A stretch of DNA of 64,000 nt. Source: Candidatus Daviesbacteria bacterium RIFCSPHIGHO2_02_FULL_43_12. GTDB lineage: Bacteria; Patescibacteriota; Microgenomatia; Daviesbacterales; UBA10151. Position numbers and translations under genes: made by a program. Where the stretch lies: contig MFDD01000002.1 in assembly GCA_001776775.1 (NCBI GenBank), positions 169,834-233,833 of the forward strand. Direction: 5' to 3'. The notes under the pieces were generated by a model. The model was not told the origin of the DNA and did not search any database. It was given only the letters and a program-made list of their open reading frames with translations. How positions within the stretch are numbered: the stretch's first letter is position 1; each line of letters opens with the position of its first letter. Positions 3,647-19,961 of this stretch are shown here, piece after piece.

Positions 3647-3653
3647 GAAGTCT

Positions 3654-4202
3654 CTAGAAATTTACCTTAACATCCATCTTTTCTGACTCAGATGCTTGGA
3701 AGAAAGCCTCTGGTAAAAAGTGAAAGGCTTGGGCAAAAAATGAGGCCGGAAATGTCTGCAATGCTGTGTTGTAATCCAAGACATTGGTATTATAAAACTG
3801 CCTGGACGAAGCGACTTTGGTCTCTGTGTCAGCTAACTCTGATTGAAGCTGTTTGAAAGTATCCGATGCTTTCAGATCAGGGTAATTTTCGGATACGGCA
3901 AAGAGGGTTTTTAACGCTCCCGTGAGCTGATTATCGGCTGCGGCCTGATCTTTAGGGTTTCCGGCATGCATTAGGGCAGAGCGGGCTTTGGTCACCTCTT
4001 CCAACACTTCCCGTTCATGCTTCATGTAGCCCTTAACAGTTTCCACTAGGTTAGGAATCAGAGAAGATCGTCTCTTCAGTTGAACATCAATCTGAGAATA
4101 GGCTTCATGAACCCTATTTCTTTTGGTAACCAAAGAATTAAAGATACTAACTGTAGCAAGCAAGAGGACTATAATGACTACGAGTACGATAGTAAGTAAC
4201 AT
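3654..4202 (-). CDS. lemA: LemA family membrane protein
   Basis: 182 aa, single N-terminal TM, LemA-like sequence; classic LemA-HtpX gene pair. Confidence 0.75.
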   Translation of the reverse strand: MLLTIVLVVIIVLLLATVSIFNSLVTKRNRVHEAYSQIDVQLKRRSSLIPNLVETVKGYMKHEREVLEEVTKARSALMHAGNPKDQAAADNQLTGALKTLFAVSENYPDLKASDTFKQLQSELADTETKVASSRQFYNTNVLDYNTALQTFPASFFAQAFHFLPEAFFQASESEKMDVKVNF

Positions 4203-4243
4203 TCTTTTTATATCTTAACTCAAATTCATTTAAATTACCAGGC

Positions 4244-5035
4244 CTAGTCCACCAATTTATGTAAATGGCCCTGAACACGCACATAGTCAAACATCTTCAA
4301 AAATAGCCATAAAGAGACCAGAAACCACACTATATTTAGCCCAGTCGCCCATATCAACTCACTCCAGGGAACAACCCCGGTGATTACCACTTGCCTCATC
4401 CCCTCAAAGACATGCGCAGCAGGGATAGCCAAAGAGACTGGTCTTAGAAAAACAGGCAAGACACTGACCGGATAAAATACTGCCACAAAAGGCTGGATCA
4501 GCATTGTCAAGGCAAAAGCTAGAATCTGGGCACTCTGCCCAAATCTCAGGATAATAGAGGTGGCGATCAGTCCCAGCACCCATCCAAAGACAAATAGATT
4601 TATCGCAAAAGGGATCAGCAATAGTCCAAAGGAAAAGATATTAAAGCGGAAAAAAGCGAGCGCTGCGATAGATAGCACTCCCCCAATCAGAGCGAGTCTC
4701 ACTACCCCAATCAGTACTGTTGAAGCTAGAAATTCACCAACCCGCACCGGAGTAACAAATAAATTAAGCAAATTACGCTCCCAAACCTCTTCTAAAAAAG
4801 CAATCGAGACCGCTTGCTGTGATCTTTGAATAAAGTTCCAAAAAACCATTGCTCCAAGTAAAGCGCTGACAATCCCTGGGATACCTGCCCGGGATTGTTG
4901 CAAGTAAAGAGTCAACCATCCCCAGATTAGAAGGTCGACAATTGGCCAAAAAACAATATCTAAGATCCTCGGTATCGACCGCGGATAAAGATACAGATAC
5001 CGCAAAAGTAGTGCATAAATCCGTGTTAAGCTCAT
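4244..5035 (-). CDS. ABC-2 type transporter permease
   Basis: 263 aa, 6 predicted TM helices, 4-nt ATGA overlap with the ATPase gene. Confidence 0.75.
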   Translation of the reverse strand: MSLTRIYALLLRYLYLYPRSIPRILDIVFWPIVDLLIWGWLTLYLQQSRAGIPGIVSALLGAMVFWNFIQRSQQAVSIAFLEEVWERNLLNLFVTPVRVGEFLASTVLIGVVRLALIGGVLSIAALAFFRFNIFSFGLLLIPFAINLFVFGWVLGLIATSIILRFGQSAQILAFALTMLIQPFVAVFYPVSVLPVFLRPVSLAIPAAHVFEGMRQVVITGVVPWSELIWATGLNIVWFLVSLWLFLKMFDYVRVQGHLHKLVD

Positions 5036-5760
5036 GTTTCCTCCCTAGCTAGTTTAATAAAGACTTCGTTTAAATCTTTCAGGCCAAATTTCTTGATTAA
5101 CTCTTTGGGAGTACCCTCAGTCACGATCTTGCCTTCGTTAATAAAAATGGCCCGATCACATAACTCCTCGACTTCCGCCATGTTATGGGTAGTATAAACA
5201 ATAGTCACGTTTTTCTCTTTTTGAACCTGTTTAAGATATTTACGGATTCGGTCAGCGATATCCGGGTCCAAAGAAGAGGTCGGTTCATCCAAAAACAGCA
5301 ATCTGGGGGAATTTAACAAGGATTTAGCCAGATTAACCCGGGTCGATTGGCCGGACGAAAGCGATCCGTATAATTTATCAAAAAAGGGAGTAATATCAAA
5401 AAAATCTACCAATTCTTTAACCTTCTCCTTGTAATTAGGTACTTCGTATAACCTGGCAAAAGTATATAAATTTTCCCAAACTTTGAGGTTGGTCGGCAGG
5501 GATACATAGGCAGATGAAAAATTAACCTGCTGCAAAATCTCATGGCTATTCTTGGGCATATCTTTACCAAAGATTTTGACTGTCCCAGAAGTAGGAATAA
5601 TCAGTCCTAGGATCATCTGGATGGTGGTGGTTTTACCAGCTCCATTTGGACCAAGAAGCCCCAGGATCTCTCCTTCTTGCACCTGGAAGCTGATATTGTT
5701 AACAGCGGTAAAGGTGCCGTAAGTTTTGGTAAGATTAGAGACTTTCAGTAAAGTTTGCAT
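5032..5760 (-). CDS. ABC transporter ATP-binding protein
   Basis: Walker A GPNGAGKTTT, signature LSSGQ, Walker B LLFLDEPTSSLD. Confidence 0.9.
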   Translation of the reverse strand: MQTLLKVSNLTKTYGTFTAVNNISFQVQEGEILGLLGPNGAGKTTTIQMILGLIIPTSGTVKIFGKDMPKNSHEILQQVNFSSAYVSLPTNLKVWENLYTFARLYEVPNYKEKVKELVDFFDITPFFDKLYGSLSSGQSTRVNLAKSLLNSPRLLFLDEPTSSLDPDIADRIRKYLKQVQKEKNVTIVYTTHNMAEVEELCDRAIFINEGKIVTEGTPKELIKKFGLKDLNEVFIKLAREET

Positions 5761-5765
5761 AGGCT

Positions 5766-7499
5766 CTATTTTAAAACATCTAACAGGTCTTTGAAACCAT
5801 AAGTATTAATAATATCTGCACTTGTGGCCCAGCCACGCCTGGCCACGGCAACTCCGTAGTCCAGTTGATCCATTTGTTCTAGGCCATGAGCGTCCGAATC
5901 TATCACTAATTTGACTCCCTTGGAGATCGCCTGCCTGACCAAGTCATCTCTCAAATCGAGTCTATCTGGAAAAGAATTAATCTCCAGGATTTTACCTTTC
6001 TTGGCACAAAATTCAAAAACTTTTGCCCAGTCAGCCTCAAAAGATGGTCTTTGATTTAAGAGCCTACCGGTAGGATGAGCCAGAATCTGCACATACGGAT
6101 TACTGAGGGCTTTTAAGATCCGCGCTGTCATCTTTGACTGCTCCATCCGATGTGCCGAATGTACCCCGACAATGCAATAGTCTAGCAGCTTCAACCCCTC
6201 ATCGGGCACAGAGATTGATCCATCCGGTTGTATATCTGCTTCCAAACCTGCCAATATCTCTATCTTACCTGCATATTTAAGCTTTAATTTGTCAATAAAT
6301 GCGCTGCGTTTTTTGAGGATGTCAATAATTTTGGGTTTACTGTGATTAGAAGTCGCTGGAGAATGATCAGAAAAACCCAAATATTTATAACCCAAAGCCA
6401 GAGCCCTTTTGACCATATCTTCCATGCTATCTCGCCCTAAGTCATGGGAGGGTTCAATAGGATAGCTCGAGTGTAAATGCAAGTCACCCTTCAAGGATCC
6501 GTAGGGAATTAACTGAGGCAGTTGATGTTTTAAGGCTGCCTCTATCTCTCCAGCATCTTCTCTTATCTCCGACGGGGGTGTTTGCATATCTAGTAGCGAG
6601 TAAACTTCTTCCTCTGTTTTACATTCAATCACTGCAGTTTTGAGTTTTTTTACTCCGTATTCGCTAATCGAGTAACCTTTATCCTCAGCTAGCTTGCGGA
6701 GACTAATATTATGATGCTTTGATCCCGTAAAATGCTGCAACAAATTTCCGTAATTTTTTGGTTTACCTACCAACAGATCGATTTGTAAATGAGAGGTCAG
6801 CATCACCATAGCTTTATTTTCGCCCTGATCAACTATCCTGGAAATCCCCGGCATTTTAACAAAGTACTTAATAGCTTTTTCCGGATTGTCAGAGGCAACG
6901 GCAAAGTCCAGATCCCCAATGGTCGCGACCTTTCGGCGCAAGCTACCCAAGCAATCCGCCTGCTTTACATCCGGAGATTTGCGTAAGTAATCGAGAATTT
7001 TAGCTGCTAACTCTTCAGCAAAAGGTAGCAGCATTCGATCTTTTTCGCTGTTAGTATCTTTTAAACCCAGTAAGATATTCTCGGCTAATTTTTCCGAGAA
7101 GCCTTCTTTGATTAAGCTCCCGTCTTCTAATCTTTGCTTTAATTCTTCTAAGTTCTGAACTTTTAAACTTAAAATCCTTTGGGCGGTTTTCGGACCGACT
7201 CCGGGAATATCCAGAGCTTCAAAAAAGACTGGGGGCAAATCTTTAGTCAAAGATTCAAAATGAGCTACTTTTCCGGTCGAAAATAGTTCGTTTAAATGCT
7301 CGCTTAAGTTTTTACCAACTCCGGGCACTTCAGCCAATTTTCCCTCTTCCCAGAGATCCTTGACCTCTGAGGTTAGATGCTCTATGGCGTCAGCCGCTGT
7401 TTCATAGGCTCGGATTTGAAAAATGGAAGCTTTTTTGAGGGTTAAGGCAGCAGCAACATTCCGCAGCAGCTTTGCCACATCCCGATTAGTCAAATCCAT
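5766..7499 (-). CDS. DNA polymerase X family protein with C-terminal PHP phosphoesterase domain
   Basis: 577 aa; N-terminal Pol-beta-like HhH region, C-terminal PHP metal-binding histidines (HLHSSYP…DHS…). Confidence 0.8.
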   Translation of the reverse strand: MDLTNRDVAKLLRNVAAALTLKKASIFQIRAYETAADAIEHLTSEVKDLWEEGKLAEVPGVGKNLSEHLNELFSTGKVAHFESLTKDLPPVFFEALDIPGVGPKTAQRILSLKVQNLEELKQRLEDGSLIKEGFSEKLAENILLGLKDTNSEKDRMLLPFAEELAAKILDYLRKSPDVKQADCLGSLRRKVATIGDLDFAVASDNPEKAIKYFVKMPGISRIVDQGENKAMVMLTSHLQIDLLVGKPKNYGNLLQHFTGSKHHNISLRKLAEDKGYSISEYGVKKLKTAVIECKTEEEVYSLLDMQTPPSEIREDAGEIEAALKHQLPQLIPYGSLKGDLHLHSSYPIEPSHDLGRDSMEDMVKRALALGYKYLGFSDHSPATSNHSKPKIIDILKKRSAFIDKLKLKYAGKIEILAGLEADIQPDGSISVPDEGLKLLDYCIVGVHSAHRMEQSKMTARILKALSNPYVQILAHPTGRLLNQRPSFEADWAKVFEFCAKKGKILEINSFPDRLDLRDDLVRQAISKGVKLVIDSDAHGLEQMDQLDYGVAVARRGWATSADIINTYGFKDLLDVLK

Positions 7500-7850
7500 A
7501 TATTCAATAATATAACTCTATCTTAAAAATAATGTAAGAGCTCTCGCTTTTGTAGCTGTGACGTCTTAAAATACTTATATGCTGACCCAGGAGAAAAAAT
7601 CGTTCATCTTTTGCAACACACTTACAGATCAATATTAGATGTGGATCGCAATCTTTTCTGATTAAGTTAAGACAGATCCTTCATGAGAGTTGGGATATAG
7701 GTTTGGGCTCTCTATATCGGCATAGTGGTGCATATAGCCTTGCTTACTCAGGTAAAGATGTAGTAAAATTGCGTGACTTGATGTATCCAAGCTCTGAAGT
7801 TCCTTGTTTAAAGAGGAAAAAAGACATTTTAGATTTTGGAATCAAGATTT

Positions 7851-7922
7851 GGGGCCGTAGCTCAATGGTAGAGCAATTCCCTGTCACGGAATAGGTCGCC
7901 GGTTCAAATCCGGTCGGTCCCG
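7851..7922 (+). tRNA. tRNA-Asp (anticodon GTC)
   Basis: Cloverleaf folded by hand: acceptor GGGGCCG/CGGTCCC, D arm GCTC-AATGGTA-GAGC, anticodon loop cTGTCac, T arm GCCGG-TTCAAAT-CCGGT; no encoded CCA. Confidence 0.9.
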
Positions 7923-7940
7923 CTACTCTATTTTGACTTC

Positions 7941-7968
7941 TTGACAACAGACCTCAGTTTGGTATAAA
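7941..7968 (+). promoter_or_regulatory. Candidate sigma70-type promoter for the LysM gene (TTGACA-16nt-TATAAA)
   Basis: -35 TTGACA 7941-7946, -10 TATAAA 7963-7968; GGAGA SD at 8007-8011 ahead of GTG start 8021. Confidence 0.5.
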
Positions 7969-8020
7969 ACAACTACAAGCTAAACCAAGCCTCATAGTTT
8001 CGCTATAGGAGATACAATCA

Positions 8021-8782
8021 GTGCCTAGACCAAAGAAAGCCACCAAAAAAGCCATTCGAAAAACAGCTGCTGAAACTCATTCCAGCGAGACAAATAATTC
8101 AAGTTTCCTCCAAAGAATCCAAAGTGAAACTCGTAACCAATTTTCTTATCTTAATTTAATACTTGGAGGATTGATCCTGTTAGTTGCTGGTATTTTGATC
8201 TTCAACTATTTTAGTCGCCCCAATGGAGATCTGGGGACTTCTCAGACTACTACAGCCTCACCGACCACCAGTGTCGATGTCACCAAAGATAGCCTCCCCG
8301 GAACTTATACAGTTAAAGCGGATGATACCCTATTTTCTATTGCCGAAAAATACTACGGAGATGGGTACCAGTTTACAAAACTAGCCGAAGCCAACAAATT
8401 AACTGATCCAGGTCTGATAATCGAGGGTCAAGTTTTAAATATTCCCAAGCTTGACTTAGCCCAAAGGGATCAAACACCTCAAGCAACGATTGCCCCAACT
8501 AGCGAACCCTCACCCACCGAGTCCACCAACACTCCATCACTTAATGCAGGCGATGAAAAGACCCAACCAGTCGATGGTGGCAAAGGCGGGGCTGTCAATC
8601 AAACCGAATGGGGAGAAAAGATTACAGCAGATACATATACTGTAGTTTCAGGAGACTGGCTTTCTAAAATCGCCGGGAGGGCTTATGGAGATATTTACGC
8701 TTTTCAAAAAATAGCCGATGCCAATGGAATTACAGATCCGAATGTGATAGAGCCAGATACCGTTCTCAAAATTCCAAGATAG
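8021..8782 (+). CDS. Membrane-anchored protein with two LysM peptidoglycan-binding domains
   Basis: 253 aa, GTG start with SD; N-terminal TM; two LysM repeats (YTVKADDTLFSIAEKYYGD… and YTVVSGDWLSKIAGRAYGD…). Confidence 0.8.
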   Translation: MPRPKKATKKAIRKTAAETHSSETNNSSFLQRIQSETRNQFSYLNLILGGLILLVAGILIFNYFSRPNGDLGTSQTTTASPTTSVDVTKDSLPGTYTVKADDTLFSIAEKYYGDGYQFTKLAEANKLTDPGLIIEGQVLNIPKLDLAQRDQTPQATIAPTSEPSPTESTNTPSLNAGDEKTQPVDGGKGGAVNQTEWGEKITADTYTVVSGDWLSKIAGRAYGDIYAFQKIADANGITDPNVIEPDTVLKIPR

Positions 8783-8837
8783 ATTTGTCTTTAGCCTTTC
8801 CTTAATCAAAGAAAGCGAGTATTGTTAATAGGCTCCC

Positions 8838-9668
8838 ATGAAGTTATTTCCCAAGATCTTTTTACCTACCTTACTTATCCTAACTGTTATTTTTCTGAAT
8901 CCAGTTTTACTTTTTTTCTCTAAACACCTGCTGCCCAAGCCCCCTATTTATCCTTTCAACCCATCAGAGGAGGTAAAAATAGCCACAGTCGCCGGAAAGA
9001 TTAAATATTCGGTTGATTATACGATCGTGCTGGTCGGTGATTCCATGACCGAAAGGTTGGGTAATGGAGATGAGCTAAAAGGATATTTAAGTCTTTATTA
9101 TCCAAATAAGACTTTCGAAATCCTCAACTATGGATTCGGCGCCACCAATATCTTATCCCTCCCAGATCGTTTGACTACAGCGACATTTATGAAGCGAGAG
9201 TTTAGACCCATTTTGGATATTGACTTCGATCTGCTACTGATAGAATCGTTTGGATATAACCCACTTTCCGAGTTGTCCTTGGAACAAGGCCTCCGGAAAC
9301 AATCGGAGATGCTCGATATTTCTCTTAACCTCATTGACTCGGCTCAAAAAAAAGCTCGTGTGGCTTTTTTTACGACCATTGCCCCCAACAAGGATATTTT
9401 CTCCAAAGGAATTGTCGAGCTATCCGCTACTCAACGCAGCTCCTGGGTCAAAGAACGAAATCGGTATATCGAAAACCACACTGCCTATGCCAAAACTCAC
9501 CAATTACCCCTGATAGATATTTATCATAGCTCCCTTGATCTATTTGGCAACGGAAAATCTATTTATATCGACTCTCAAGACAACCTGCACCCTTCTCCAA
9601 CTGGAATATTTTTTATTAGCCAACAGCTAGCCTCAGGCATCTCTAAACTTCAACTGCTAAAAAATTAA
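8838..9668 (+). CDS. SGNH/GDSL-family hydrolase (membrane anchored)
   Basis: 276 aa; GDS block VLVGDSMTE and catalytic DxxH block (DNLHPSPTG) near C-terminus. Confidence 0.7.
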   Translation: MKLFPKIFLPTLLILTVIFLNPVLLFFSKHLLPKPPIYPFNPSEEVKIATVAGKIKYSVDYTIVLVGDSMTERLGNGDELKGYLSLYYPNKTFEILNYGFGATNILSLPDRLTTATFMKREFRPILDIDFDLLLIESFGYNPLSELSLEQGLRKQSEMLDISLNLIDSAQKKARVAFFTTIAPNKDIFSKGIVELSATQRSSWVKERNRYIENHTAYAKTHQLPLIDIYHSSLDLFGNGKSIYIDSQDNLHPSPTGIFFISQQLASGISKLQLLKN

Positions 9669-9699
9669 CTCCCCATTGTTTCCTTATAGCTAATGATAT

Positions 9700-10059
9700 T
9701 TATTTTCCAGGCTTCATTTCTGGACTCATTAACCCAGTCCGAACACTGACAGCATCCTGTGGGTTAGGACTGGCTCGATCTGGCTTGGATCTTTGTTCAA
9801 TCATGCGCTGAGGACGTTCTGGTGGTTTTAGCAGATCTGGAAAGGGAGTTTCCTTCTCGGGCAATTTGACTGCAAATTCTTGCTCTACAGCCTCTTTGAC
9901 TACAGCTCCCGGGATCTCCGTAGCACCTCCCACAACTCCTCTTCCAACACTACTAGCAAGTCCTCCAATCAGCCCTTTTCCTCCAAAAGGACCCATTTTT
10001 GCTTCAGCTTGAGGAGCAGGGGCGACAGCTTTAGGTTCTTGTTCAGTAATATCAGCCAT
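9700..10059 (-). CDS. Hypothetical Gly/Pro-rich protein
   Basis: ORF-track ORF begins with TTG at 10074; first ATG is at 10059 (MADITEQEP…). No recognisable domain. Confidence 0.35.
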   Translation of the reverse strand: MADITEQEPKAVAPAPQAEAKMGPFGGKGLIGGLASSVGRGVVGGATEIPGAVVKEAVEQEFAVKLPEKETPFPDLLKPPERPQRMIEQRSKPDRASPNPQDAVSVRTGLMSPEMKPGK

Positions 10060-10100
10060 AGGTTTAGTGTACAAGAAAATAGGTTAGAAGACAAAAGAGG

Positions 10101-10172
10101 AGCCGACTATCGGATTTGAACCGATGACCTACTGTTTACGATACAGCCGCTCTACCACTGAGCTAAGTCGGC
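10101..10172 (-). tRNA. tRNA-Thr (anticodon CGT)
   Basis: Reverse complement folds as GCCGACT-TA-GCTC-AGTGGTA-GAGC-G-GCTGT-aTCGTAa-ACAGT-AGGTC-ATCGG-TTCAAAT-CCGAT-AGTCGGC-T. Confidence 0.9.
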
Positions 10173-10407
10173 ATATCCCAATTCTAAAGGTCGGAGACGT
10201 ACATATCAAGAAAGAGCTTGTTTATTTCAAGACAGTCTGAGATAATAGATTTCCTAATACTACTAGCGAGCTGGTGGTATTTTTTTGGGGTTTTTTAAAA
10301 AAATTATGCTACTCGGAGCCTTGACCGGATTATTAATTCTTTTTTGTGTCTGTATCTTTACCTTTGTTTTTTATGCCTTTTTACAGAAGTTTTTTGGTTA
10401 GAACCAA

Positions 10408-10857
10408 TTATTTCTCGGCTATTTCTTTTACCTTTGGCAAAACCCGATCCCAAGTCGCACCAGACATTTGACAGTATTTTTCTCCTTCGTGTACTGCTGA
10501 AAAATCACCCTGCAATACATGCAGAGTGGTTACGCCATTTTGCTCAGACAGCTCGTAGGTGATACCATCTTCTTCGGTGACCGGAGGTTTGGCTCCGCGA
10601 ACATCAAGTACCGTAAATCGCAAGAATTTATCCGGCTCCAGGGCCGTTACCTCCCCTTCGACAATTATTATTCCGTTTTGGTCCTTCCAAAGAACCGGTT
10701 TACCTAGCTGCCAGTTTGATTCAATGTGAAACTGCGGAGATCCGCTCGAAAACTCGGGTGCCCAGATATCGGTATCCTCACGCCTAGTTAAGGCCTCCCA
10801 GACTCTCCCAACCGGAGCATTTATTTGAATTGTCTTATCTACAAACAGTTTGGCCAT
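10408..10857 (-). CDS. SRPBCC-fold (AHSA1/polyketide-cyclase-like) protein
   Basis: 149 aa; sequence pattern resembles SRPBCC ligand-binding domain proteins; family call is by similarity recall only. Confidence 0.45.
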   Translation of the reverse strand: MAKLFVDKTIQINAPVGRVWEALTRREDTDIWAPEFSSGSPQFHIESNWQLGKPVLWKDQNGIIIVEGEVTALEPDKFLRFTVLDVRGAKPPVTEEDGITYELSEQNGVTTLHVLQGDFSAVHEGEKYCQMSGATWDRVLPKVKEIAEK

Positions 10858-10932
10858 AGTTAAAGTATACCTCTTTTAAAAAACTTAAGCGGATGAAGAA
10901 ATGAATAAGTATATATTTACAGCCGCTACTGA

Positions 10933-11772
10933 TTATTTTTCAGCAGTAAAGATACAGTACCTAATCAGTCCCTTTTTCATCAATTCATACCACTCGACTG
11001 CTATAGTTGTATTAACAAAATACCGTTGTAAGTTGAATAATTTAATAAGGAAATACGGCAATAAAGCAATCCTTCTTAACCTTTGAAGTGAAGGTAACAT
11101 ATTTTTGGTAATATTTCTTTCCTTAATATTTTTAAAACCTATTTTCTTTAAGTAGCTTCCAAACTGGTCATGTTTAAACTCTTTAAGACCCAAGGCTGCT
11201 GTTCCCTCTATTCCCAAGTTGAGCATTTCCAGCTCCCGGGATGTAAAATCTTTTTCAGGCGCAAGAGTATATTCAAAAAATACGACTTTTCCATTTGGCT
11301 TTAGGATATTTAAAAATTGCCTTAAAGTCTTTTTTAGTTCTGCCGCATGAGAGAGGGTTTCTAAGGTAAAAATTGCATCAAAAGTGTTTTTAGTAAAAGA
11401 GGTCCTGGAATAATCCATTATTTCAAATTTCACTCTACCTTCGAGATTTAATTTCCTCGCTCTGCCTCTCGCCTTTCCTATTTCATAACTATTAAGATCT
11501 AGCCCGACAATATTCACCTTACTTTTTTCGGCTAAGTAACACGCAACCACTCCGTAACCACAACCAGCATCTAAGACCATTTGATTAGGTTTAAGACGCA
11601 GATATTTCGCTACTAAATCAGACATCAGTTGCTGTGCTTCATGTTCGGAGATGTTCCTTTGACCTTCAGGATAGTAACCAAAATGCTTTACCTTTTTAGT
11701 AATATATTCATAGCCAAGTTTCGACTCAAGACTTTTATAGTAACCCAAAACTTTTTTCTGATTAATATTCAT
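10933..11772 (-). CDS. Class I SAM-dependent methyltransferase
   Basis: 279 aa; motif I VLDAGCGYG, Rossmann-fold pattern. Confidence 0.8.
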   Translation of the reverse strand: MNINQKKVLGYYKSLESKLGYEYITKKVKHFGYYPEGQRNISEHEAQQLMSDLVAKYLRLKPNQMVLDAGCGYGVVACYLAEKSKVNIVGLDLNSYEIGKARGRARKLNLEGRVKFEIMDYSRTSFTKNTFDAIFTLETLSHAAELKKTLRQFLNILKPNGKVVFFEYTLAPEKDFTSRELEMLNLGIEGTAALGLKEFKHDQFGSYLKKIGFKNIKERNITKNMLPSLQRLRRIALLPYFLIKLFNLQRYFVNTTIAVEWYELMKKGLIRYCIFTAEK

Positions 11773-11935
11773 ATCGGAATTATACCAGTAAATAATTTTT
11801 AATAGCTGGAAAGTATTCCAGATTTACCACTTATTTCTAAAGTAAAAACAGGTCTTTGTTGCTACATTACAGCCGATCCTATTTTTAAAACTAGATGACT
11901 TTAAAGACCACCTTCCAATAGACAACTTTATGGAT

Positions 11936-12283
11936 TTAAAAAAGGACTCTAAAGTAGAAAAATAGGAAGACTAGTATGTGTATTGGTGCAGTAATTAAAC
12001 CTGGTACATACTTTTTAGCTACTCCTGACCAAACGATATGTTGGACTCCATTGGCGAACATTAGCACTAAGAAAAATGCTTGAAAATACTGCCTATTAGG
12101 AAAATCCTGAAGAAAATAAACACTGATCCAAAACCCTTCAAATACTAACTCAAATAGTAAAAATACCCAAAATGGCATTTTGAAGGCATACCATTTTTTA
12201 TGGAACCCTGTAAATAGTTCTTCTAACACATGTGCAATCTGTACAAGTACACTTATCAAGAAAAATTGCTCCAAAAGACTCAT
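11936..12283 (-). CDS. HXXEE-domain small membrane protein
   Basis: 115 aa, 4 TM segments, IAHVLEELF (HxxEE) motif. Confidence 0.55.
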   Translation of the reverse strand: MSLLEQFFLISVLVQIAHVLEELFTGFHKKWYAFKMPFWVFLLFELVFEGFWISVYFLQDFPNRQYFQAFFLVLMFANGVQHIVWSGVAKKYVPGLITAPIHILVFLFFYFRVLF

Positions 12284-12349
12284 AACTTAACTATACCAAA
12301 AGTGAGTTGTTTTTAGTAAGCAAAAAAAGTAATATTGACCCATAATTTT

Positions 12350-13909
12350 ATGGCTAAGACTCCTGATGGCACCCTGAGATACTTTGACTACATTCCTGGA
12401 CAATCCTTTCGTCCCTTTTTGCAAGCTGCTTTAGATCAGCGATTAGGTGCTCAATACGAAGCTTCGTCCAAAACAGATTACAAAGTTCATCCTATAATCG
12501 CTGATCGTCTTCAAAATATCCGGCTTCTTCCCCAAGATAGACGATACATTAGAGTAATTCACGCTCTTGACCCTGATAATCGTCAGCTTACCGAGGGTTT
12601 AGCCTACTTATTAGATACAGCTAGTACTCCACTTGCCACTAGGAAGATCAAGGAGCGTTTTGCCCAGACAAAAGTTTCCTTAGACGACTGTCTGACAGGT
12701 TTTAGCTCAGCCGAAAAGGGGATACTTGCAGAAAATTTGGCCTTTTTGCAATTGACAGAAGGCTGCACTGTGGGATGTTCCTTTTGCGGGGTAAGCGCCG
12801 CCAGAAAAGTTTCTTCTTCTTTTTCCTTGGAGTCATTAGTTAAGTTTGGCAAAGAAGTCCCTGGCAAGATGAATAGATTATCAACTTTATACTATGCCTC
12901 TGACCCTTTTGACTGGATTGACGGAGATTATACATATCTAGATTTATCGCCTCTTTGGGGTACTTACACCTCTGGTGTTCCTTATATGAGCACATCTTTA
13001 CCACTCGGTGCAGAATTCTCTGTTCTGCGTTTTTTAGAAGCTAATTACCATCTTTATAATCAGGGAAAAGATGCAGCCTCTGTAAGACAGATACGCTTTT
13101 CTAGAACTTCCCATAATGCTGCGCGAGTAGATACTATTTTTAGTGTCTTAGAACAAAGAGGCGTTAGTAAGGACTTTTTATCGACAATGCAGATTAATGA
13201 TCTAACTAAACAAGATTCCATTCGGAAAAATGGTCATTTAATTCATCATCCAGATAGAGATCCGCTAGCCGATGCATGGGGTATAAGTTGTCAAGATGGG
13301 GTATACATATCTCCTGGTCAAGGAGTTCGGGCGGGTATCGTCGAAGCATGTACGAGGGCCTCACCGACCGGATTATTCACATGGCCACTCGAACCCGGAC
13401 GTATGACGATTCCGGTTGAACGCTTTACTGGTTCAAGCGAATATGAGCATCCAGGGACTGCAATTTATGGTCGACTAAGCTTTAGTCTAATCCCTGAAGC
13501 TGAGGTAATGGAGGTAAGAAATGGAAAAATTACAGATCGTCATGTTTACCCCTCCATCAGGCGTGATATAAAAACTTTTCTGGTCGCTCTGAGAAATCTA
13601 GGATCATTAGCCGTTTTTTACAACTTTGAGGACAACACTAGGATATCCAAATTACGGTTTCTTGTAGCAGACGAGATCTCAGAGTTACGTGATGAGTTTG
13701 AAAGAAGAAGAGAAAAGTGTGAAAGATCTTTTCCTCAAAATAAAGATAGTGAAGCAGTAGCAATAGCCACAGAACTTATACGAAGAACGAGTCAACGATT
13801 TGACGAGCTCGCTGAGGTCTTGAAACCGGGGTTTGGAAGATCAGAAATCCCCCCAGGACTTTTGACTGACCCATATGGCAACTTAAGAACAGAGATTCTC
13901 TCGAGGTAA
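12350..13909 (+). CDS. Radical SAM enzyme of unknown function with ~145-aa N-terminal extension
   Basis: CxxxCxxC cluster at CTVGCSFCG ~aa 150; ORF track start 12335 is TTG, first ATG 12350; no SPASM/twitch Cys cluster seen; GC higher than surroundings. Confidence 0.7.
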   Translation: MAKTPDGTLRYFDYIPGQSFRPFLQAALDQRLGAQYEASSKTDYKVHPIIADRLQNIRLLPQDRRYIRVIHALDPDNRQLTEGLAYLLDTASTPLATRKIKERFAQTKVSLDDCLTGFSSAEKGILAENLAFLQLTEGCTVGCSFCGVSAARKVSSSFSLESLVKFGKEVPGKMNRLSTLYYASDPFDWIDGDYTYLDLSPLWGTYTSGVPYMSTSLPLGAEFSVLRFLEANYHLYNQGKDAASVRQIRFSRTSHNAARVDTIFSVLEQRGVSKDFLSTMQINDLTKQDSIRKNGHLIHHPDRDPLADAWGISCQDGVYISPGQGVRAGIVEACTRASPTGLFTWPLEPGRMTIPVERFTGSSEYEHPGTAIYGRLSFSLIPEAEVMEVRNGKITDRHVYPSIRRDIKTFLVALRNLGSLAVFYNFEDNTRISKLRFLVADEISELRDEFERRREKCERSFPQNKDSEAVAIATELIRRTSQRFDELAEVLKPGFGRSEIPPGLLTDPYGNLRTEILSR

Positions 13910-13913
13910 TATC

Positions 13914-14192
13914 CTACTGTAGAGCTTCTGGTAACATCATTCTCCAAACCTCTGGTGTAGTCTGCGCTCTAAGCGCACGAATCACCCGACACCTCGATGC
14001 TAAAAAAGCCGCACCATTTCTTCTATGAGAATCGTCTCCTTCGTGCGGCTCTTTAGCAAAGAAATGACCAACGCTACATCCATCACAAAAAACAGCAATA
14101 GTCGGCATTTTTTGGATTGGGAATTCAGTCTCTCCTGCTGGTTGATAAGAGACACCTGTCATCGTTTCAGCTCCACAACGTGCTATAGACAT
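13914..14192 (-). CDS. Small Cys-containing hypothetical protein (92 aa), convergent on radical SAM gene
   Basis: ATG start verified; GC-rich; 5 Cys including CDGC; no family recognised; could be spurious. Confidence 0.3.
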   Translation of the reverse strand: MSIARCGAETMTGVSYQPAGETEFPIQKMPTIAVFCDGCSVGHFFAKEPHEGDDSHRRNGAAFLASRCRVIRALRAQTTPEVWRMMLPEALQ

Positions 14193-14277
14193 AGGTGAAT
14201 AGTATGTTTCACAAGCGCAGAAGTCAATTAATACCGAAGATTAAAAATAATAGGTATTAAAAACTGAACCAGGCTTT

Positions 14278-14877
14278 TTACTTTGGTGTTTGTTTATCTA
14301 TCTGAGGTCGCTTGGCAATATATTGCAAGATCGCCTGCTTATGAGATACATGACGATAAATAAGCACGAATCCAACAAATAGCATATAGCCTACTGCAAC
14401 ACCAATTGTATTGAATATCACATCATTGATGTCGGCAATCCGAAACGTAGTGTGTGCCAAGAGCCCTGTTACGAGCTGCGCAAGCTCAATAGCGATGCTA
14501 AACAGCGCTCCAGCAACAACTACCTTCTTCATGCGAAAGTTCGTAATGAACGGCAGCCCGAAGCCAAAAGGGATCAGCAGCAGAATGTTGAGTAGCGAGG
14601 TTTTCAGATCCGAAGGAGTAAGGGTGATAAGCGGGATAAGATTCATGTCTTTCCCAGCCGCTTGTCCATTCAGCATAAGGTCTGGTATAAAATACCTTAG
14701 AATAACTAGAGATTGAAATTGAAATAATGTGTAATCCAGAACCTTAACTATGTAGATATAGAATATAGTGAAGAATATCAAATATACGATACTTTTCTTA
14801 TTTCTAAACAAAAGAAACACGGCAACACCGATCCAAATCAAGCCCAAAAGAAGTACAATCAATAAATTAAAATACAT
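14278..14877 (-). CDS. VanZ-like family membrane protein
   Basis: ORF track start is GTG at 14892; first ATG at 14877. 4-5 TM helices and a C-terminal pattern (AIELAQLVTG…RIADINDVIFNTIG) like VanZ-like proteins. Confidence 0.5.
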   Translation of the reverse strand: MYFNLLIVLLLGLIWIGVAVFLLFRNKKSIVYLIFFTIFYIYIVKVLDYTLFQFQSLVILRYFIPDLMLNGQAAGKDMNLIPLITLTPSDLKTSLLNILLLIPFGFGLPFITNFRMKKVVVAGALFSIAIELAQLVTGLLAHTTFRIADINDVIFNTIGVAVGYMLFVGFVLIYRHVSHKQAILQYIAKRPQIDKQTPK

Positions 14878-15088
14878 TACAAATCCTACCACCCTCTCGA
14901 ACTCGCCTCGTTCGACGCGAGTCGAAGCGGGCCAATCACACTATATCATTCCTGATTTACGAACTTACTGATAACTGTCAATTGGAGCTGGTGACCGTAC
15001 TTTGCTCGAACCTAAGACAATCTGTTACTCCAGACTTAATTCTACAACTTCAGTTACTCAAATGTCATTTAAATATTGAGATCTTTAA

Positions 15089-15538
15089 TTAAAAACCTGG
15101 TGGATTATCTGAAATTTCAGGAGTACCGATCCATGGCAGTGGCACTAATTTATATTCGCATTCCCTTGCTTGTAGATGATACTTAAAAAATCCATTACTA
15201 CTTAACTCTTTCGAGAGCTCCCCATATTTTTGCTCGATTACTTTAGCACATCTATTGTAAGCGTATGTATGCACTTGAACCATAAAAAGAATAAACAGAT
15301 AGTAACTGAGAATAAGCGCAGGAAAAATAACAATGATTTTAAAGAGTGTACGGTTTTTTATTTGTAACCAAGCTAATGTTGCAATAATGAATGGGGCAAC
15401 CCACAGAAATTTTATATCAAAATTAAAGGTTGTACATATCTTATCAATTAGCACAAGCAGCAGGAAAGAAAACAATGTCACTAGTACAGTTTGTATAAAG
15501 TATTTGTAAATATTAATCGACTGTAATTTTTTTGTCAT
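15089..15538 (-). CDS. Hypothetical membrane protein
   Basis: 149 aa, 3-4 TM helices, no motif recognised. Confidence 0.4.
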   Translation of the reverse strand: MTKKLQSINIYKYFIQTVLVTLFSFLLLVLIDKICTTFNFDIKFLWVAPFIIATLAWLQIKNRTLFKIIVIFPALILSYYLFILFMVQVHTYAYNRCAKVIEQKYGELSKELSSNGFFKYHLQARECEYKLVPLPWIGTPEISDNPPGF

Positions 15539-15572
15539 TTTCTGTACATTTCTGTAGATAGCTGTTGATTAG

Positions 15573-15644
15573 AGCGGTGGACCGGACTTGAACCGGCGAC
15601 CTTCTCCTTGGGAAGGAGATATTCTACCACTGAACTACCACCGC
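15573..15644 (-). tRNA. tRNA-Gly (anticodon CCC)
   Basis: Reverse complement GCGGTGG-TA-GTTC-AGTGGTA-GAAT…TCTCC-tTCCCaa-GGAGA-AGGTC-GCCGG-TTCAAGT-CCGGT-CCACCGC-T; discriminator U. Confidence 0.9.
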
Positions 15645-15698: not shown

Positions 15699-16430
15699 AT
15701 GCGCCGTAACCGTTATCCTTCCAAATCCTATCGGCCACGATCTGTTCGTCATTTTGAACAAAAAGGTAAACAAAAGGCTATCTGGTATTTGACCTTTATA
15801 CTGGTCTTGCTCTATGTCTTTTTTTCCTGGGGAATACCAACAATTATCAAAACAGTTTCTCGTTTCAATCATCCCAAATCAGCGCCCAAGGTAGGTACTG
15901 ATTATATTGAGCTAACCCCACCGGTTTTTAGCATCCCCTACGAAGCTACCCCCACTGCCTCTATCCGTATCTTAGGATATTCTCAACCCAATACAGAAGT
16001 CGCTATCTATCTTAATGACACCCTAGCTACCACGGTTCACACTGCAGACGATGGAACCTTCGAGTCAAGTGCATTGAGTCTGGATAAAGGCGAAAATTAC
16101 CTCTATGGAAAAACAGTTGATTCCTCCGGAAAGGAGAGCCTCTCTTCAAAATCTATCCGGATAGTCCTGAATATCGACAAACCAATACTAGAAGTTTTTG
16201 AACCTCAGGACAATAAAATAGTTTCCGGTGGAGACCGTAAAATCACGGTCAAAGGCAAAACAGACGCTTTGAGTATTAGTATCAATGGATCAATAGTGAT
16301 TATTTCCTCAGACGGCAGCTTTTCAAACGACCTCCAGCTTCAAGACGGAGAAACCCAAATTACTATTGTGGCCACAAATAGCGTGGGCAGTAGTACTTCC
16401 GTCCAAAGAAAAGTTACTTATTCTCCCTAA
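15699..16430 (+). CDS. Membrane-anchored protein with bacterial Ig-like beta-sandwich repeats
   Basis: 243 aa, basic N-terminus + TM, then Thr/Ser-rich repeated beta-strand pattern. Confidence 0.5.
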   Translation: MRRNRYPSKSYRPRSVRHFEQKGKQKAIWYLTFILVLLYVFFSWGIPTIIKTVSRFNHPKSAPKVGTDYIELTPPVFSIPYEATPTASIRILGYSQPNTEVAIYLNDTLATTVHTADDGTFESSALSLDKGENYLYGKTVDSSGKESLSSKSIRIVLNIDKPILEVFEPQDNKIVSGGDRKITVKGKTDALSISINGSIVIISSDGSFSNDLQLQDGETQITIVATNSVGSSTSVQRKVTYSP

Positions 16431-17583
16431 CTGACCAACAAACACCCAACCAAAAAAGCAGCACCAACATCACCGGAGGAAAAAAGAGGCTATTTATAAA
16501 CTGGCTATTGACCAACACCCCAAGCAGCAGCCCTCGGATCACCAAACCTAACTGATTAGAGTATTTAGCAAATATAATCCGGATCCAAAAATATAAAAAA
16601 GCTATTAACCCCGATATTCCGGTGGTCGCTAGTACAAATAGCAGGCTCGAATCAACCCCTGCCCCGGCATGTCCTCCATCCTCGGAGTATGTTTTAGTTA
16701 GAGCCAGGGTATCAAAAGCTAGTCTTAGGTTATTAAACCCCACGCCGAGAACTGGACTAGACTGAAAGACTAGCAATCCGTTTTTCCAAGAATAGAAACG
16801 TTCTATCGAAGATTTATCTACTCTAAAGCCTCCAATAATACGCTCTGAGAATTTAGGGATAGACAAGTAGAGCACTAAGTTTATCACCAGCAGGAGTATC
16901 AAAAGTTTACGGTACTTAAAAAATCCCCATATTAAGCACTGAACTATTAAAAATAGATAGGCTGAACGAGAAAAGGTGAGAATAATCCCACTACAGATTA
17001 AAACCGCAAGCCAGACACTCCACTTCTTTGGCGCCTTAACCCAGCTAAAAAAAGTTATTGCCAAAGTGACATTCAGAAAACTCCCTACAAAATTAGGATC
17101 TAAAAAGGTCGAAACTAGTCTACCTTGATGCGGATCAAAACCAAAAGGGGTTAAGGGACGGAGGTCAGAAAAGACCACAAGTTGGAGGATCCCTAAAACC
17201 GAGATTACTCCACCTAAAATAGCTAATAATTTATTTACCGTTTCCAGAGAGGTCACTTTTTCCTTGATTAAACAAAAGCCTATCCAAAAACTCAGACAAT
17301 AAAAAATAAACCTAATGAGATAAAACCCTCCTTGTAGATGCCCAGAAACTAGCAGGGATAAGACAGCTACTATCCAAAATGGTAACCAGAGTAGTAGCAC
17401 TTTCAATGTTGAGAGGTTTCTCTTTACTCCAATCTGCCAAACTAATAAAAAAACTACCGCTAGTCCTAACATCAAGTCATAGACCGTTACCGAAAGACCT
17501 CCTCCGCCAAAAGGAAATCGACCAAATTCTCCAAATACCAGAGCGACAAAGGTCCCGATCGTTAAAAACCAGACTAAGTTCAT
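16414..17583 (-). CDS. O-antigen ligase/Wzy-like polymerase family membrane protein
   Basis: 389 aa, ~10 TM helices, TFSRSAYL block characteristic of Wzy_C. Confidence 0.6.
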   Translation of the reverse strand: MNLVWFLTIGTFVALVFGEFGRFPFGGGGLSVTVYDLMLGLAVVFLLVWQIGVKRNLSTLKVLLLWLPFWIVAVLSLLVSGHLQGGFYLIRFIFYCLSFWIGFCLIKEKVTSLETVNKLLAILGGVISVLGILQLVVFSDLRPLTPFGFDPHQGRLVSTFLDPNFVGSFLNVTLAITFFSWVKAPKKWSVWLAVLICSGIILTFSRSAYLFLIVQCLIWGFFKYRKLLILLLVINLVLYLSIPKFSERIIGGFRVDKSSIERFYSWKNGLLVFQSSPVLGVGFNNLRLAFDTLALTKTYSEDGGHAGAGVDSSLLFVLATTGISGLIAFLYFWIRIIFAKYSNQLGLVIRGLLLGVLVNSQFINSLFFPPVMLVLLFWLGVCWSVRENK

Positions 17584-18602
17584 ACTTTTATCAGTCCAAA
17601 CCAGGTAATTTTCTTCGGACGAATATTTTGCAGCATATACTCGTCACTAACCTTTTTCATTTGTTGAACCGCTCTTCTTTTCTGGATCAATTTCTGCCAA
17701 TTCTTCAGAATATACCATTCGCTGCTGATTGCTTCCTTAAAATATCCATGAGTACCTAAAAAACGTACCGTATTTAGATTAACCAAAAAAAGCATCAAAA
17801 GATGATAAGGATTTTTAAAGAGCTTAGCTGGAAAGTCGGTAATAATAGTCTGGGTCATATTACGAAACTGCAAATATTCAGTTAGCTTTAAATTTTTTCG
17901 GGAAGTAGCTTTATGTATATGCCAAATCTTAGCTGTCGATTCAAACCAGCCCTTAAATCCGGCCATCTGCGCCCTCAGGCACAGGTCAACATCCTCATAA
18001 TAAGCAAAGAAGGTTTCGTCAAACAGCCCGATTTTCTCTAGCATCTCCCTCTTAAACAACCCGCCGCCTCCGGTAACCAAAAATACAAAATTAGATGTTT
18101 TAAATTTTTCACTCGGCTCACCAAAACCAATATTATCAGCATGACCTACCATATCAATATAATCACCAGCCGAGTCAATTAATTCTGGGTTAAAAAACTG
18201 TAACATTTTTGCCGCTACCATTCCAACCTCTGGATGCAGGTTAGCAGCACTCACCAAATTCCGAATACAATCTTTGTCTACCTTTGTATCATTATTGATG
18301 AGTATAATATATGTTCCCTTGCTGACTAAGATTCCTTTATTTGCGGCCGGAGAAAATCCGATATTCAAAGGCAGCTTTATTAGGTTTACTTGCGGAAAAT
18401 TTTCTTCAATATACTGGATTGACTCATCAGTCGAACCATTATCTACGACAATTATTTCAAAATCCAAAAAGGTTTGGGCTGTTAAACTTGGTAAACAAAT
18501 CTTCAGCAGCTTATGACCATTCCAGTTAGGAATCACTATCGAAGCTGTTACGGTAGTTTTTCTGGGCGGTAATTTAAGTATAGGTGGGTAAATTTCTTGC
18601 AC
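17580..18602 (-). CDS. Family 2 glycosyltransferase
   Basis: SIVIPNWN…VVDNGSTDES, DxD context; GTG start in ORF track. Confidence 0.85.
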   Translation of the reverse strand: MQEIYPPILKLPPRKTTVTASIVIPNWNGHKLLKICLPSLTAQTFLDFEIIVVDNGSTDESIQYIEENFPQVNLIKLPLNIGFSPAANKGILVSKGTYIILINNDTKVDKDCIRNLVSAANLHPEVGMVAAKMLQFFNPELIDSAGDYIDMVGHADNIGFGEPSEKFKTSNFVFLVTGGGGLFKREMLEKIGLFDETFFAYYEDVDLCLRAQMAGFKGWFESTAKIWHIHKATSRKNLKLTEYLQFRNMTQTIITDFPAKLFKNPYHLLMLFLVNLNTVRFLGTHGYFKEAISSEWYILKNWQKLIQKRRAVQQMKKVSDEYMLQNIRPKKITWFGLIKV

Positions 18603-19876
18603 TAGAGTCTTTTGAATACTTGACGCTGCAAAAAGGCAAAAAAGACGACAAAGGACAAAGCCTCAGATAATACAGTTACAACGGCTGCTCCATTATATCC
18701 AAACATCGGGATCAGCATCAAATTAGCCGCAATATTAAAACTAACGGTAATCACCGAAAGAGCTATTACACCGGTTAAGTATCTGTCAGAGGACAGCAAC
18801 ACTAATGATCCGGGAACATGGATAAAGATAAAAGGAATAGTCAAAGACAGGATCAACAGAGTCGGGATAGCATTAATATATTGAGGCAAAAAATGTTGAA
18901 TTAATATCGGCAGAACAACTACGAATCCGAGCAAAACCACAAAAGATGCCGCAAATAATAATTTTAGGGATTTGAAGTAGAGTCTTTTTACTTGCGCCAG
19001 ATCGTTACTATGCAATCTGGCCAGGACTGGAAACATGGCTGTGGCCACAGTTGCAGGAATAAACACCACCGCCTCCAAAAATTTATAAGCCGCACCATAA
19101 ATACCGGCTTCGTATGATCCCCGAATATAAGCAACTAACAAAGCGTCAATCTTGAAATAAATCAGGCCCAACACACCCAAGATACCATAAGGCAGTGACC
19201 CGACAGCTATCTCTCTTAGCATCTCGAAGGAAAGGGCGTGTGGACTGGTTTTTGTCTCTTTGAGATACCTATAACCCAGCTTTATAGGAATAATAAAGAG
19301 CACTAAACAATAAAATATCTGACCCAAGACTATGGCCGAAACTGCCCCAAACACTCCATATCCATTACTCAACAAAAATACCCCAAACAAGGTTGTGGCG
19401 ATATTTAAACACACCAACCCAACCGAAGACCAAAAAAGCTTTTCTACGCCTACAAAGGCGCTGTCCAGCGTAAAGGCAATCGCTTGCGGCAATACTGCCG
19501 AAACAGCCAGCAAAGTAAGGGCCACCCGCATATGATCAGGGTCGCTTACCCGCAGAAATAGGGCAAATAAGGCATAAACTACAGAGATCAGGGCCAGTCT
19601 AAAAAGAAGTACCGAACAAAATAGTTCTGAGAGTTTATTTTTATTATCCTTTTTGTTGCTCAAAAGCGCGGTCTGTCTGGTTAAAAACCGATTTATCCCA
19701 AATTCTGCCAAGGCTGAAATTAGTGAAAAGTAAGAAAGCGCAACGGTATAAAGTCCAAAGATTGCCGGATCCCCTAAAATTTTAATTAAATATATGGTAT
19801 AAAAAAAGGATACTACTTTAGTAAACAATTGGGCCGTCATAAGATAAGAAGAATTTCGAAAGATCCCCGGAGGCAT
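18602..19876 (-). CDS. Wzx-type polysaccharide flippase (MOP/MATE superfamily)
   Basis: 12-14 TM helices; ORF-track start 19930 is TTG, first ATG 19876. Confidence 0.7.
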   Translation of the reverse strand: MPPGIFRNSSYLMTAQLFTKVVSFFYTIYLIKILGDPAIFGLYTVALSYFSLISALAEFGINRFLTRQTALLSNKKDNKNKLSELFCSVLLFRLALISVVYALFALFLRVSDPDHMRVALTLLAVSAVLPQAIAFTLDSAFVGVEKLFWSSVGLVCLNIATTLFGVFLLSNGYGVFGAVSAIVLGQIFYCLVLFIIPIKLGYRYLKETKTSPHALSFEMLREIAVGSLPYGILGVLGLIYFKIDALLVAYIRGSYEAGIYGAAYKFLEAVVFIPATVATAMFPVLARLHSNDLAQVKRLYFKSLKLLFAASFVVLLGFVVVLPILIQHFLPQYINAIPTLLILSLTIPFIFIHVPGSLVLLSSDRYLTGVIALSVITVSFNIAANLMLIPMFGYNGAAVVTVLSEALSFVVFFAFLQRQVFKRL

Positions 19877-19961
19877 AACTTTAGTGTAGCAGAAAAAATA
19901 TCTTAAACAAGTCTTCCTTCCTACTTGCAACAGCCAAACTTACTCTGAGATAATAGGCTTC

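Follow-up and report, generated by a model that had tools for sequence, protein, structure and literature searches.

Between a tRNA-Thr and a tRNA-Gly gene of Candidatus Daviesbacteria bacterium RIFCSPHIGHO2_02_FULL_43_12 lie seven open reading frames (ORFs), among them genes for an atypical radical S-adenosylmethionine (SAM) enzyme (hereafter rSAM), a methyltransferase and small membrane proteins. Does this set form a biosynthetic module, the remnant of an integrated element or something looser? The question was addressed with the 64,000-nucleotide (nt) stretch of contig MFDD01000002.1 spanning positions 169,834–233,833, referred to as the window, in whose coordinates all positions are given. 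Comparison with related genomes favours the last answer. With a probability of roughly 0.7, the interval represents one version of a conserved cargo slot of Daviesbacteria chromosomes that is prone to rearrangement, and its seven genes, probably collected independently of one another, are not a pathway. A preliminary description, made from the sequence and its ORFs, had instead read the interval as a GC-rich accessory segment carrying a compact module for secondary-metabolite synthesis or peptide modification and self-protection. The features that delimit and fill the slot are the following:

5766–7499, minus strand: PolX, left conserved backbone (Pfam)
7851–7923, plus strand: tRNA-Asp, left backbone (ARAGORN and Rfam)
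8021–8782, plus strand: LysM protein, left conserved backbone (Pfam)
10099–10172, minus strand: tRNA-Thr(CGT), left slot boundary (ARAGORN; Rfam RF00005, 70.5 bits)
10408–10857, minus strand: SRPBCC/AHSA1-type small protein binding hydrophobic ligands, 149 residues (aa) (PF08327, 41.3 bits; cut-off 22.1)
10933–11772, minus strand: class-I SAM methyltransferase, 279 aa, of the CMAS/sterol-C-methyltransferase/UbiE-like small-molecule type (Pfam)
11936–12283, minus strand: HXXEE-family membrane protein, 115 aa (PF13787, 36 bits; cut-off 25)
12335–13909, plus strand: rSAM-like enzyme, 524 aa (519 aa in public gene calls, which start at the ATG at 12350), the only plus-strand gene of the slot
13914–14192, minus strand: orf92, 92 aa with four cysteines, tail-to-tail with the rSAM gene
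14278–14892, minus strand: VanZ-like membrane protein, 204 aa (199 aa in public gene calls; PF04892, 60.6 bits)
15089–15538, minus strand: predicted membrane protein, 149 aa (mem149), an ORF with no family
15572–15644, minus strand: tRNA-Gly(CCC), right slot boundary (ARAGORN; Rfam, 69.8 bits)
15699–16430, plus strand: Ig-like/Glucodextran_B protein, right conserved backbone (Pfam)
16414–17583, minus strand: Wzy_C protein, right conserved backbone (Pfam)
17580–18602, minus strand: GT2 glycosyltransferase, right conserved backbone (Pfam)
18602–19930, minus strand: Polysacc_synt flippase, right conserved backbone (Pfam)

Slot content and flanks in related genomes

The two tRNA genes had been described as flanking the interval on the same strand, and both were found there by ARAGORN as well as Rfam (about 70 bits each); at Rfam gathering thresholds the window contained three tRNAs only. 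All seven ORFs were likewise recovered at the positions first reported, with Pfam backing the SRPBCC, methyltransferase, HXXEE and VanZ identities. For the comparison of the interval with relatives, which the preliminary description had proposed, neighbourhoods of orthologues of the Ig-like protein and PolX were collected from other Daviesbacteria-like genomes and their tRNAs were located. Six such loci were compared (L084, L095, L097, L098, L099 and L100). The backbone, in the order PolX, tRNA-Asp, LysM, slot, Ig-like (Glucodextran_B), Wzy_C, glycosyltransferase and flippase, was present in L084 and L097–L100, and the PolX and LysM orthologues were equally placed in these five loci and in L095. 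A tRNA-Gly(CCC)/tRNA-Thr(CGT) pair lies between the LysM and Ig-like genes in L084 and L097–L100, where it brackets 2.4–5.4 kb. The contents at the six loci are as follows:

L084, 5692–9976: tRNA-Gly, DUF5701, Na_Ca_ex, YceG, RlmI-like methyltransferase, tRNA-Thr
L097, 1357–5266: five small genes, one encoding a NUDIX protein
L098, 5057–8911: Trypsin_2, a 172-aa ORF, a T5orf172 nuclease and a CMAS-like methyltransferase
L099, 6130–8731: an AAA ATPase and a 54-aa ORF
L100, 3291–5889: an MGH1-like glycoside hydrolase and a 152-aa ORF
L095: rearranged, with Bro-N genes

Different genes were thus encountered each time. In tblastn searches of the relatives' loci, the orthologues of the flanks were recovered and the cargo remained unmatched, save for one generic methyltransferase at 26% identity; the SRPBCC protein was not in the slot of any of the six relatives. 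The designation of the interval as accessory therefore stands as far as variable content between conserved flanks is concerned, and falls for the higher GC content that had been attached to it (see below).

The tRNA-bounded block also differs in orientation relative to its flanks: L097 and L100 share the window's arrangement, Thr(−)..Gly(−), and L084, L098 and L099 have Gly(+)..Thr(+). Two block orientations imply at least one inversion. A search for repeats that might mediate such an event turned up nothing beyond tRNA–tRNA similarity. The tRNA-Asp near the slot also changes orientation among genomes. Genes of selfish or phage type occur in or beside the slot of several relatives, namely a T5orf172/MUG113 nuclease in L098 (6297–7019), a GIY-YIG endonuclease in L099 (9639–9902) and Bro-N domain proteins in L095 (2537–3376 and 6726–7547), which is consistent with repeated insertion at the locus.

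In the arrangement that we propose, the slot would sit between the LysM-protein gene and a glycan cluster of Ig-like, Wzy, GT2 and flippase genes, and its present occupants would be a minus-strand run of HXXEE, methyltransferase and SRPBCC genes, the lone plus-strand rSAM gene, orf92, the VanZ-like gene and the membrane protein. Its cargo would turn over by local recombination and inversion, with occasional insertion of selfish genes, rather than through a site-specific integrase.

The radical-SAM protein and its family

The gene that lends the interval its biosynthetic appearance is that of rSAM. Its 524-aa product contains TEGCTVGCSFCG, a CX3CX2C motif, and two features of the coding sequence are central to its interpretation:

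12764–12787, plus strand: CX3CX2C motif for the [4Fe-4S]/SAM cluster (C144/C148/C151), which translates as TEGCTVGCSFCGVS
13289–13291, plus strand: Cys319, within GISCQDG, aligned with the sole invariant non-cluster cysteine of PoyD-like epimerases

The hidden Markov model search of the slot proteins that had been proposed was carried out. It gave 17.7 bits for rSAM against PF04055, below the cut-off of 29.5 and confined to residues 139–195, and 40.9 bits against TIGR04517, the model of PoyD-type epimerases, compared with a cut-off of 325 and limited to residues 131–236. Enzymes that epimerise ribosomally synthesised, post-translationally modified peptides (RiPPs) constitute the nearest characterised relatives. 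A housekeeping RNA methylthiotransferase, by contrast, was not what the protein resolved to: the MiaB and RimO models scored 14–21 bits against cut-offs of 251–357. With the methylthiotransferases MiaB, RimO and MtaB, rSAM has only the cluster-binding loop in common (residues 106–170), and it matched neither the UPF0004 nor the TRAM domain.

Alignment of the family profile built around rSAM with a PoyD-like profile by hhalign reached 99.1% probability (E 6e-19) over residues 129–350, and paired GISC(319)QDG with TIAC(353)VSG, which holds the only invariant non-cluster cysteine of the PoyD-like set. The invariant CX3CX2C motif and this homology to PoyD-like radical-SAM proteins place rSAM, as judged from sequence, in the radical SAM superfamily. 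An AlphaFold model (pLDDT 85.8, pTM 0.86) has alternating strands and helices over residues 135–289, a beta domain over 320–405 and long C-terminal helices; nothing in the Protein Data Bank (PDB) resembled rSAM significantly by sequence or by Foldseek.

A profile search covering 1.84 billion representatives, with clusters at 50% identity, returned 439 family representatives at E<=1e-3 and 47 at E<=1e-30. A word-index search returned three proteins only, including one that belongs to the organism of the window, and gave the same three when the family alignment served as the query. For each of the best 150 representatives, the new-family profile gave a much higher score than the PoyD-like profile. 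Scoring of loci on the two profiles separated them cleanly, with 19 higher on the former and 64 on the latter, and the rhizobial, Lachnospiraceae and other loci of the same scan proved to be true TIGR04517 members (382–583 bits). By these profile comparisons, the family, which has no Pfam or NCBIfam model and comprises about 440 clusters at 50% identity, is sister to the PoyD epimerases. C144, C148 and C151 are present in all 147 aligned family representatives and C319 in 108 of 127; an SDPFD motif, T220, P223 and G346 are near-invariant, and no extra conserved cysteines for auxiliary clusters were found in the family. Members occur largely in genomes of the candidate phyla radiation (CPR), namely Daviesbacteria, Curtissbacteria, Roizmanbacteria, Saccharibacteria and unclassified Patescibacteria, and of the DPANN archaea Micrarchaeota and Woesearchaeota; others are in several Gammaproteobacteria metagenome-assembled genomes (MAGs) and one from Deltaproteobacteria. 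No relative of the family was found on viral contigs.

Contigs carrying orf92 or a near-identical rSAM gene (L001 and L085–L094) are 99.8–100% identical to the window at the nucleotide level; they therefore come from one population and are uninformative about evolution. Public records of this population, which is represented by CPR/Microgenomates MAGs of the Rifle aquifer, are those of Candidatus Daviesbacteria RIFCSPHIGHO2_01_FULL_44 (A2631_02445–02515). One of its contigs, ANAN16-1 scaffold_4888, lacks the 23 nt of window positions 13611–13633 (at L001 1453–1460), which shifts the rSAM frame and yields a 428-aa product (P0001); the other contigs are intact. Either the deletion arose in assembly, or a variant within the population carries a disrupted rSAM gene. 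The same scaffold has a further difference between the VanZ-like and mem149 genes, where 60 nt (L001 2838–2897) replace the 17 nt of the window (15019–15035), and on another contig the mem149 variant is called shorter, at 122 aa.

The resemblance of rSAM to the PoyD/OspD-type proteusin epimerases (TIGR04517) extends to a homologous catalytic core, the CX3CX2C motif and a further conserved cysteine. According to a review, PoyD homologues have one strictly conserved additional cysteine (Cys372), which has been proposed as a hydrogen-atom donor with support from C372A mutants (PMC8326336). C353 of our PoyD-like alignment, which was built from sequences other than PoyD itself, probably corresponds to this residue. 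By analogy, rSAM would bind a single [4Fe-4S] cluster through C144, C148 and C151 and cleave SAM reductively to a 5'-deoxyadenosyl radical. This radical would abstract a hydrogen atom from the substrate, most plausibly from the alpha carbon of a peptide, and Cys319 would return the hydrogen, so that a peptide or protein would be epimerised at the alpha carbon. The substrate would be encoded elsewhere in the genome and not by a conserved neighbour.

Epimerisation specifically is a tentative assignment, with the odds somewhat against it; radical-SAM chemistry on a peptide or protein in general is rated as more probable. Three points speak against the specific mechanism: it is derived from about 200 aligned core residues plus one cysteine, the counterpart of Cys319 is missing in 19 of 127 representatives, and the N- and C-terminal domains of rSAM have no counterpart in PoyD. 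These regions (about 1–128 and 351–524) do not align with PoyD-type epimerases and suggest a mode of recognition unlike that of the proteusin enzymes. In further contrast to the latter, rSAM has no adjacent precursor of the nitrile-hydratase-like or Nif11 type, being solitary and set among neighbours that vary from locus to locus.

Gene neighbourhoods and the question of a module

Whether rSAM works together with the genes around it was examined in 82 loci with rSAM homologues from other genomes and contigs, 18 of which belong to the family of the window and 64 to the PoyD-like group. The 18 family loci stem from two metagenome contigs and 16 species genomes, and 8–10 kb of neighbourhood were analysed. 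Across the 82 loci, the six neighbours of rSAM (SRPBCC, methyltransferase, HXXEE, orf92, VanZ-like and mem149) gave only short chance matches in tblastn at E<=10. The co-occurrence analysis of rSAM with HXXEE and VanZ neighbours, also proposed at the outset, found neither beside any of the 18 family homologues elsewhere. An all-against-all BLAST of the neighbours at 14 family loci revealed no conserved partner, and small ORFs adjoining the rSAM gene showed no conservation across the window and 13 other family loci. At most of the family's loci this gene is alone on its strand, amid genes for MraZ, a phosphodiesterase, a Mur ligase, a HopA1-like protein, UPP synthase, a DEAD helicase and glycosyltransferases. 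The HopA1-domain protein (487 aa, 75 bits; L014 5198–6661, minus strand) is encoded two genes upstream of the rSAM homologue in a Patescibacteria MAG; HopA1 is a type III effector family of plant pathogens, found here in a CPR genome.

Two homologues from other Microgenomates do lie among glycan genes. In L005 (Daviesbacteria UBA9644; 1886–13891) the homologue is surrounded by three PMT_2 genes, two GT4 genes, a hexapeptide transferase gene and Wzy_C, and in L006 (Curtissbacteria; 5633–10569) it has a Polysacc_synt flippase on one side and Wzy_C on the other. The rSAM gene of the window is 2.5 kb from the Wzy_C/GT2/flippase genes, which form a backbone cluster independent of slot content. Glycosyltransferase genes are common in CPR genomes, so that this association in three out of three cases may be due to chance. 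The presence of rSAM homologues in glycosylation clusters may accordingly reflect a functional link or simply genomes rich in glycosyltransferases.

The homologues inside the glycosylation clusters of the two other Microgenomates hint at the kind of target that figures in a broader reading, which we regard as unlikely, namely that the family is a new stand-alone radical-SAM class with an epimerase-type core and no dedicated precursor, through which CPR bacteria, DPANN archaea and some proteobacteria represented by MAGs would modify a housekeeping or envelope target. The target, a protein, peptide or glycoconjugate, would thereby acquire D-residues or some other radical modification. If the family does modify a non-RiPP substrate, radical-SAM peptide chemistry would reach beyond natural-product pathways.

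An envelope connection can also be extended to the interval as a whole. The HXXEE, VanZ-like and mem149 proteins, the lipid-type C-methyltransferase, the START-like, lipid-binding SRPBCC protein and an rSAM acting on the envelope would then make up a loose set directed at envelope lipids, glycans or surface proteins, recruited beside the Wzy/GT2/flippase cluster. The position of the slot next to that cluster, the likeness of the methyltransferase to CMAS, cyclopropane-fatty-acid (CFA)-synthase and sterol-methyltransferase types, and the location of the L005 and L006 homologues would all fit such a set. It is made improbable by the conservation of the glycan cluster as backbone whatever the slot contains, by the cargo of the relatives (AAA ATPase, NUDIX protein, protease, ion exchanger), which has no envelope theme, and by the unrelated neighbours of family members beyond Microgenomates.

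A RiPP-like module, in which the peptide encoded by orf92 would be modified by rSAM and tailored by the methyltransferase, with export or immunity provided by the HXXEE, VanZ-like and small membrane proteins, is closest to the preliminary description. As in known radical-SAM RiPP clusters, an enzyme related to RiPP maturases stands beside a small cysteine-containing ORF; orf92 looks coding, has four cysteines and adjoins the rSAM gene, and the entire gene set is lineage-specific. Unlike in such clusters, however, the two genes are convergent and not co-transcribed, and they are not conserved together. Searches of Pfam and NCBIfam found no NHLP, Nif11 or other precursor signature in orf92, which also has no homologue near the 18 family homologues, and Pfam found no peptidase, protease or ABC-transporter family in the interval. 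The resistance role of the VanZ-like protein had been taken from the family name alone: it scored 47.2 bits against the vanZ-F model NF000145 (cut-off 375) and matched only the generic PF04892 domain, so that, on its scores, it is not a VanZ resistance equivalog. With rSAM the lone plus-strand gene, its neighbours unconserved and no precursor, protease or transporter at hand, the compact module first envisaged is not borne out, and we consider it very unlikely. It was the comparative context, and neither GC content nor family names, that decided that a suggestive gene set flanked by tRNAs is no biosynthetic module.

Several observations weigh against the reading of the interval as a slot filled with independently collected cargo. 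The relatives are distant, with PolX 55–64% and flanking proteins 32–58% identical, and some difference in cargo is to be expected anywhere in such fast-evolving genomes. The slot of L084 holds the housekeeping gene YceG/MltG, and the term accessory slot is thus not strict in every lineage. The run of HXXEE, methyltransferase and SRPBCC genes could still be a small functional unit, as the co-occurrence analysis covered only rSAM. Finally, the small-ORF test, when applied to 14 PoyD-like loci as a positive control, detected one clear precursor pair, located upstream of PoyD-like genes (E 8e-9); the test thus works, with limited sensitivity. In this control, conserved ORFs of 109–117 aa, which look like proteusin-type precursors, lie directly upstream of, and co-directional with, PoyD-like radical-SAM genes in L049 (7129–7458) and L082 (6548–6892 and 6988–7341). 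If the cargo-slot reading is correct, CPR genomes, which are usually called streamlined and syntenic, possess at least one conserved tRNA-pair slot with cargo turnover and inversion and with no recognisable integrase.

Composition, island hallmarks and the remaining genes

The centre of the interval, which had been described as visibly richer in GC than the glycosyltransferase genes (about 37%), is not anomalous. Positions 12300–14200 contain 42.5% GC, at the 85th percentile of 1.9-kb windows (mean 40.6, standard deviation (sd) 2.0), and the interval as a whole (10173–15571) contains 38.5%, below the 40.7% of the window and at the 6.5th percentile of 5.4-kb windows. The window's 38 reference genes range from 32.8 to 47.6% GC, which encloses all seven slot ORFs, and have 38.2 +/- 3.8% GC at third codon positions (GC3). 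GC3 is low in rSAM (0.33) and orf92 (0.31), and their GC excess therefore sits in codon positions 1 and 2, i.e. in amino-acid composition; in five of the seven slot genes GC3 is 1.3–2.5 sd below the host mean. Codon-usage log-odds scores, trained on the long genes of the window, resembled those of host genes: for each of the seven ORFs the annotated frame scored positive, and the five alternative frames were distinctly negative. The GC argument for a foreign origin of the interval does not hold.

As noted in the preliminary description, no integrase is present: none was found among the ORFs of 9.7–16.4 kb with Pfam, NCBIfam, PADLOC or PHROG. The last 22 nt at the 3' end of each tRNA recur nowhere else in the window with up to three mismatches allowed, and no att repeat was detected. 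PADLOC and PHROG found no mobile or defence family in the slot. An origin from a defence system or phage was considered and rejected, as the PADLOC and PHROG matches amounted to generic methyltransferase similarity and the rSAM family has no relatives on viral contigs. The slot resembles tRNA-associated islands and integration hot spots in being bounded by tRNAs, in its variable content between conserved flanks and in the occasional selfish genes. It differs from them in that it has no integrase, att direct repeat or compositional anomaly, in that two different tRNAs bound it and invert with it, and in that YceG lies inside that of one relative. A decayed tRNA-targeting integrative element that lost its integrase and att site is highly improbable: the adjacent tRNA genes, the variable content, the selfish or phage-type genes at relatives' slots (T5orf172 in L098, GIY-YIG near L099, Bro-N in L095) and the low GC3 of the five genes would suit it, but there is no integrase and no tRNA 3'-end repeat within three mismatches, phage and defence families and viral-contig relatives of rSAM are lacking, codon scores are host-like, and both tRNAs are single-copy, complete and kept as a pair in relatives.

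Among the remaining cargo, the SRPBCC protein corresponds to public record A2631_02475. The methyltransferase matched Methyltransf_31/25/11 in Pfam at 67–70 bits and CMAS at 53.7 bits; its NCBIfam matches were all sub-threshold, and its top matches in plasmid records were 23–31% identical and carried the annotations sterol C-methyltransferase, CFA-synthase family or generic methyltransferase. The plasmid record with the best match is unannotated. The HXXEE gene is divergent from the rSAM gene. For mem149, three hydrophobic stretches were recognised by inspection and the codon score was +0.161; it had no match in Pfam or NCBIfam. Promoter and terminator scans remained at chance level (15 vs. 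16.0 expected; 3 vs. 5.1 expected).

The 4-nt gap reported between the convergent genes rSAM and orf92 was confirmed, with the rSAM stop at 13909 and that of orf92 starting from 13914. Judged by its codon-usage score, which was +0.084 in frame and −0.34 to −0.74 in the five other frames, orf92 is probably coding. It had no match in Pfam, NCBIfam, PADLOC, PHROG or Rfam, its homologues are confined to the same population, and an AlphaFold2 single-sequence model was unusable (pLDDT 47.7). Its segment FCDGCSVGHFF gave weak tblastn matches to the cluster-motif region in many rSAM loci. The idea that orf92 is a degraded rSAM paralogue was discarded, given an hhalign match of 12 columns at 12% probability and a BLASTP E of 0.6, which point to a chance motif match; a non-coding RNA was likewise discarded, because Rfam found only tRNAs in the window and the codon score favours coding.

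Two further genes stand between the LysM gene and the tRNA-Thr:

8838–9668, plus strand: GDSL hydrolase, lineage-specific, after the LysM gene
9700–10074, minus strand: Gly/Pro/Ala-rich ORF of 124 aa, between the GDSL hydrolase gene and tRNA-Thr, with no family match

The 124-aa ORF has a GC content of 0.66 at first and 0.30 at third codon positions and the top codon score of the region. Together, the GDSL gene and this ORF form a lineage-specific insertion outside the tRNA pair, and similar additional genes (TPR and NAD_binding_2) also lie outside the pair in L100.

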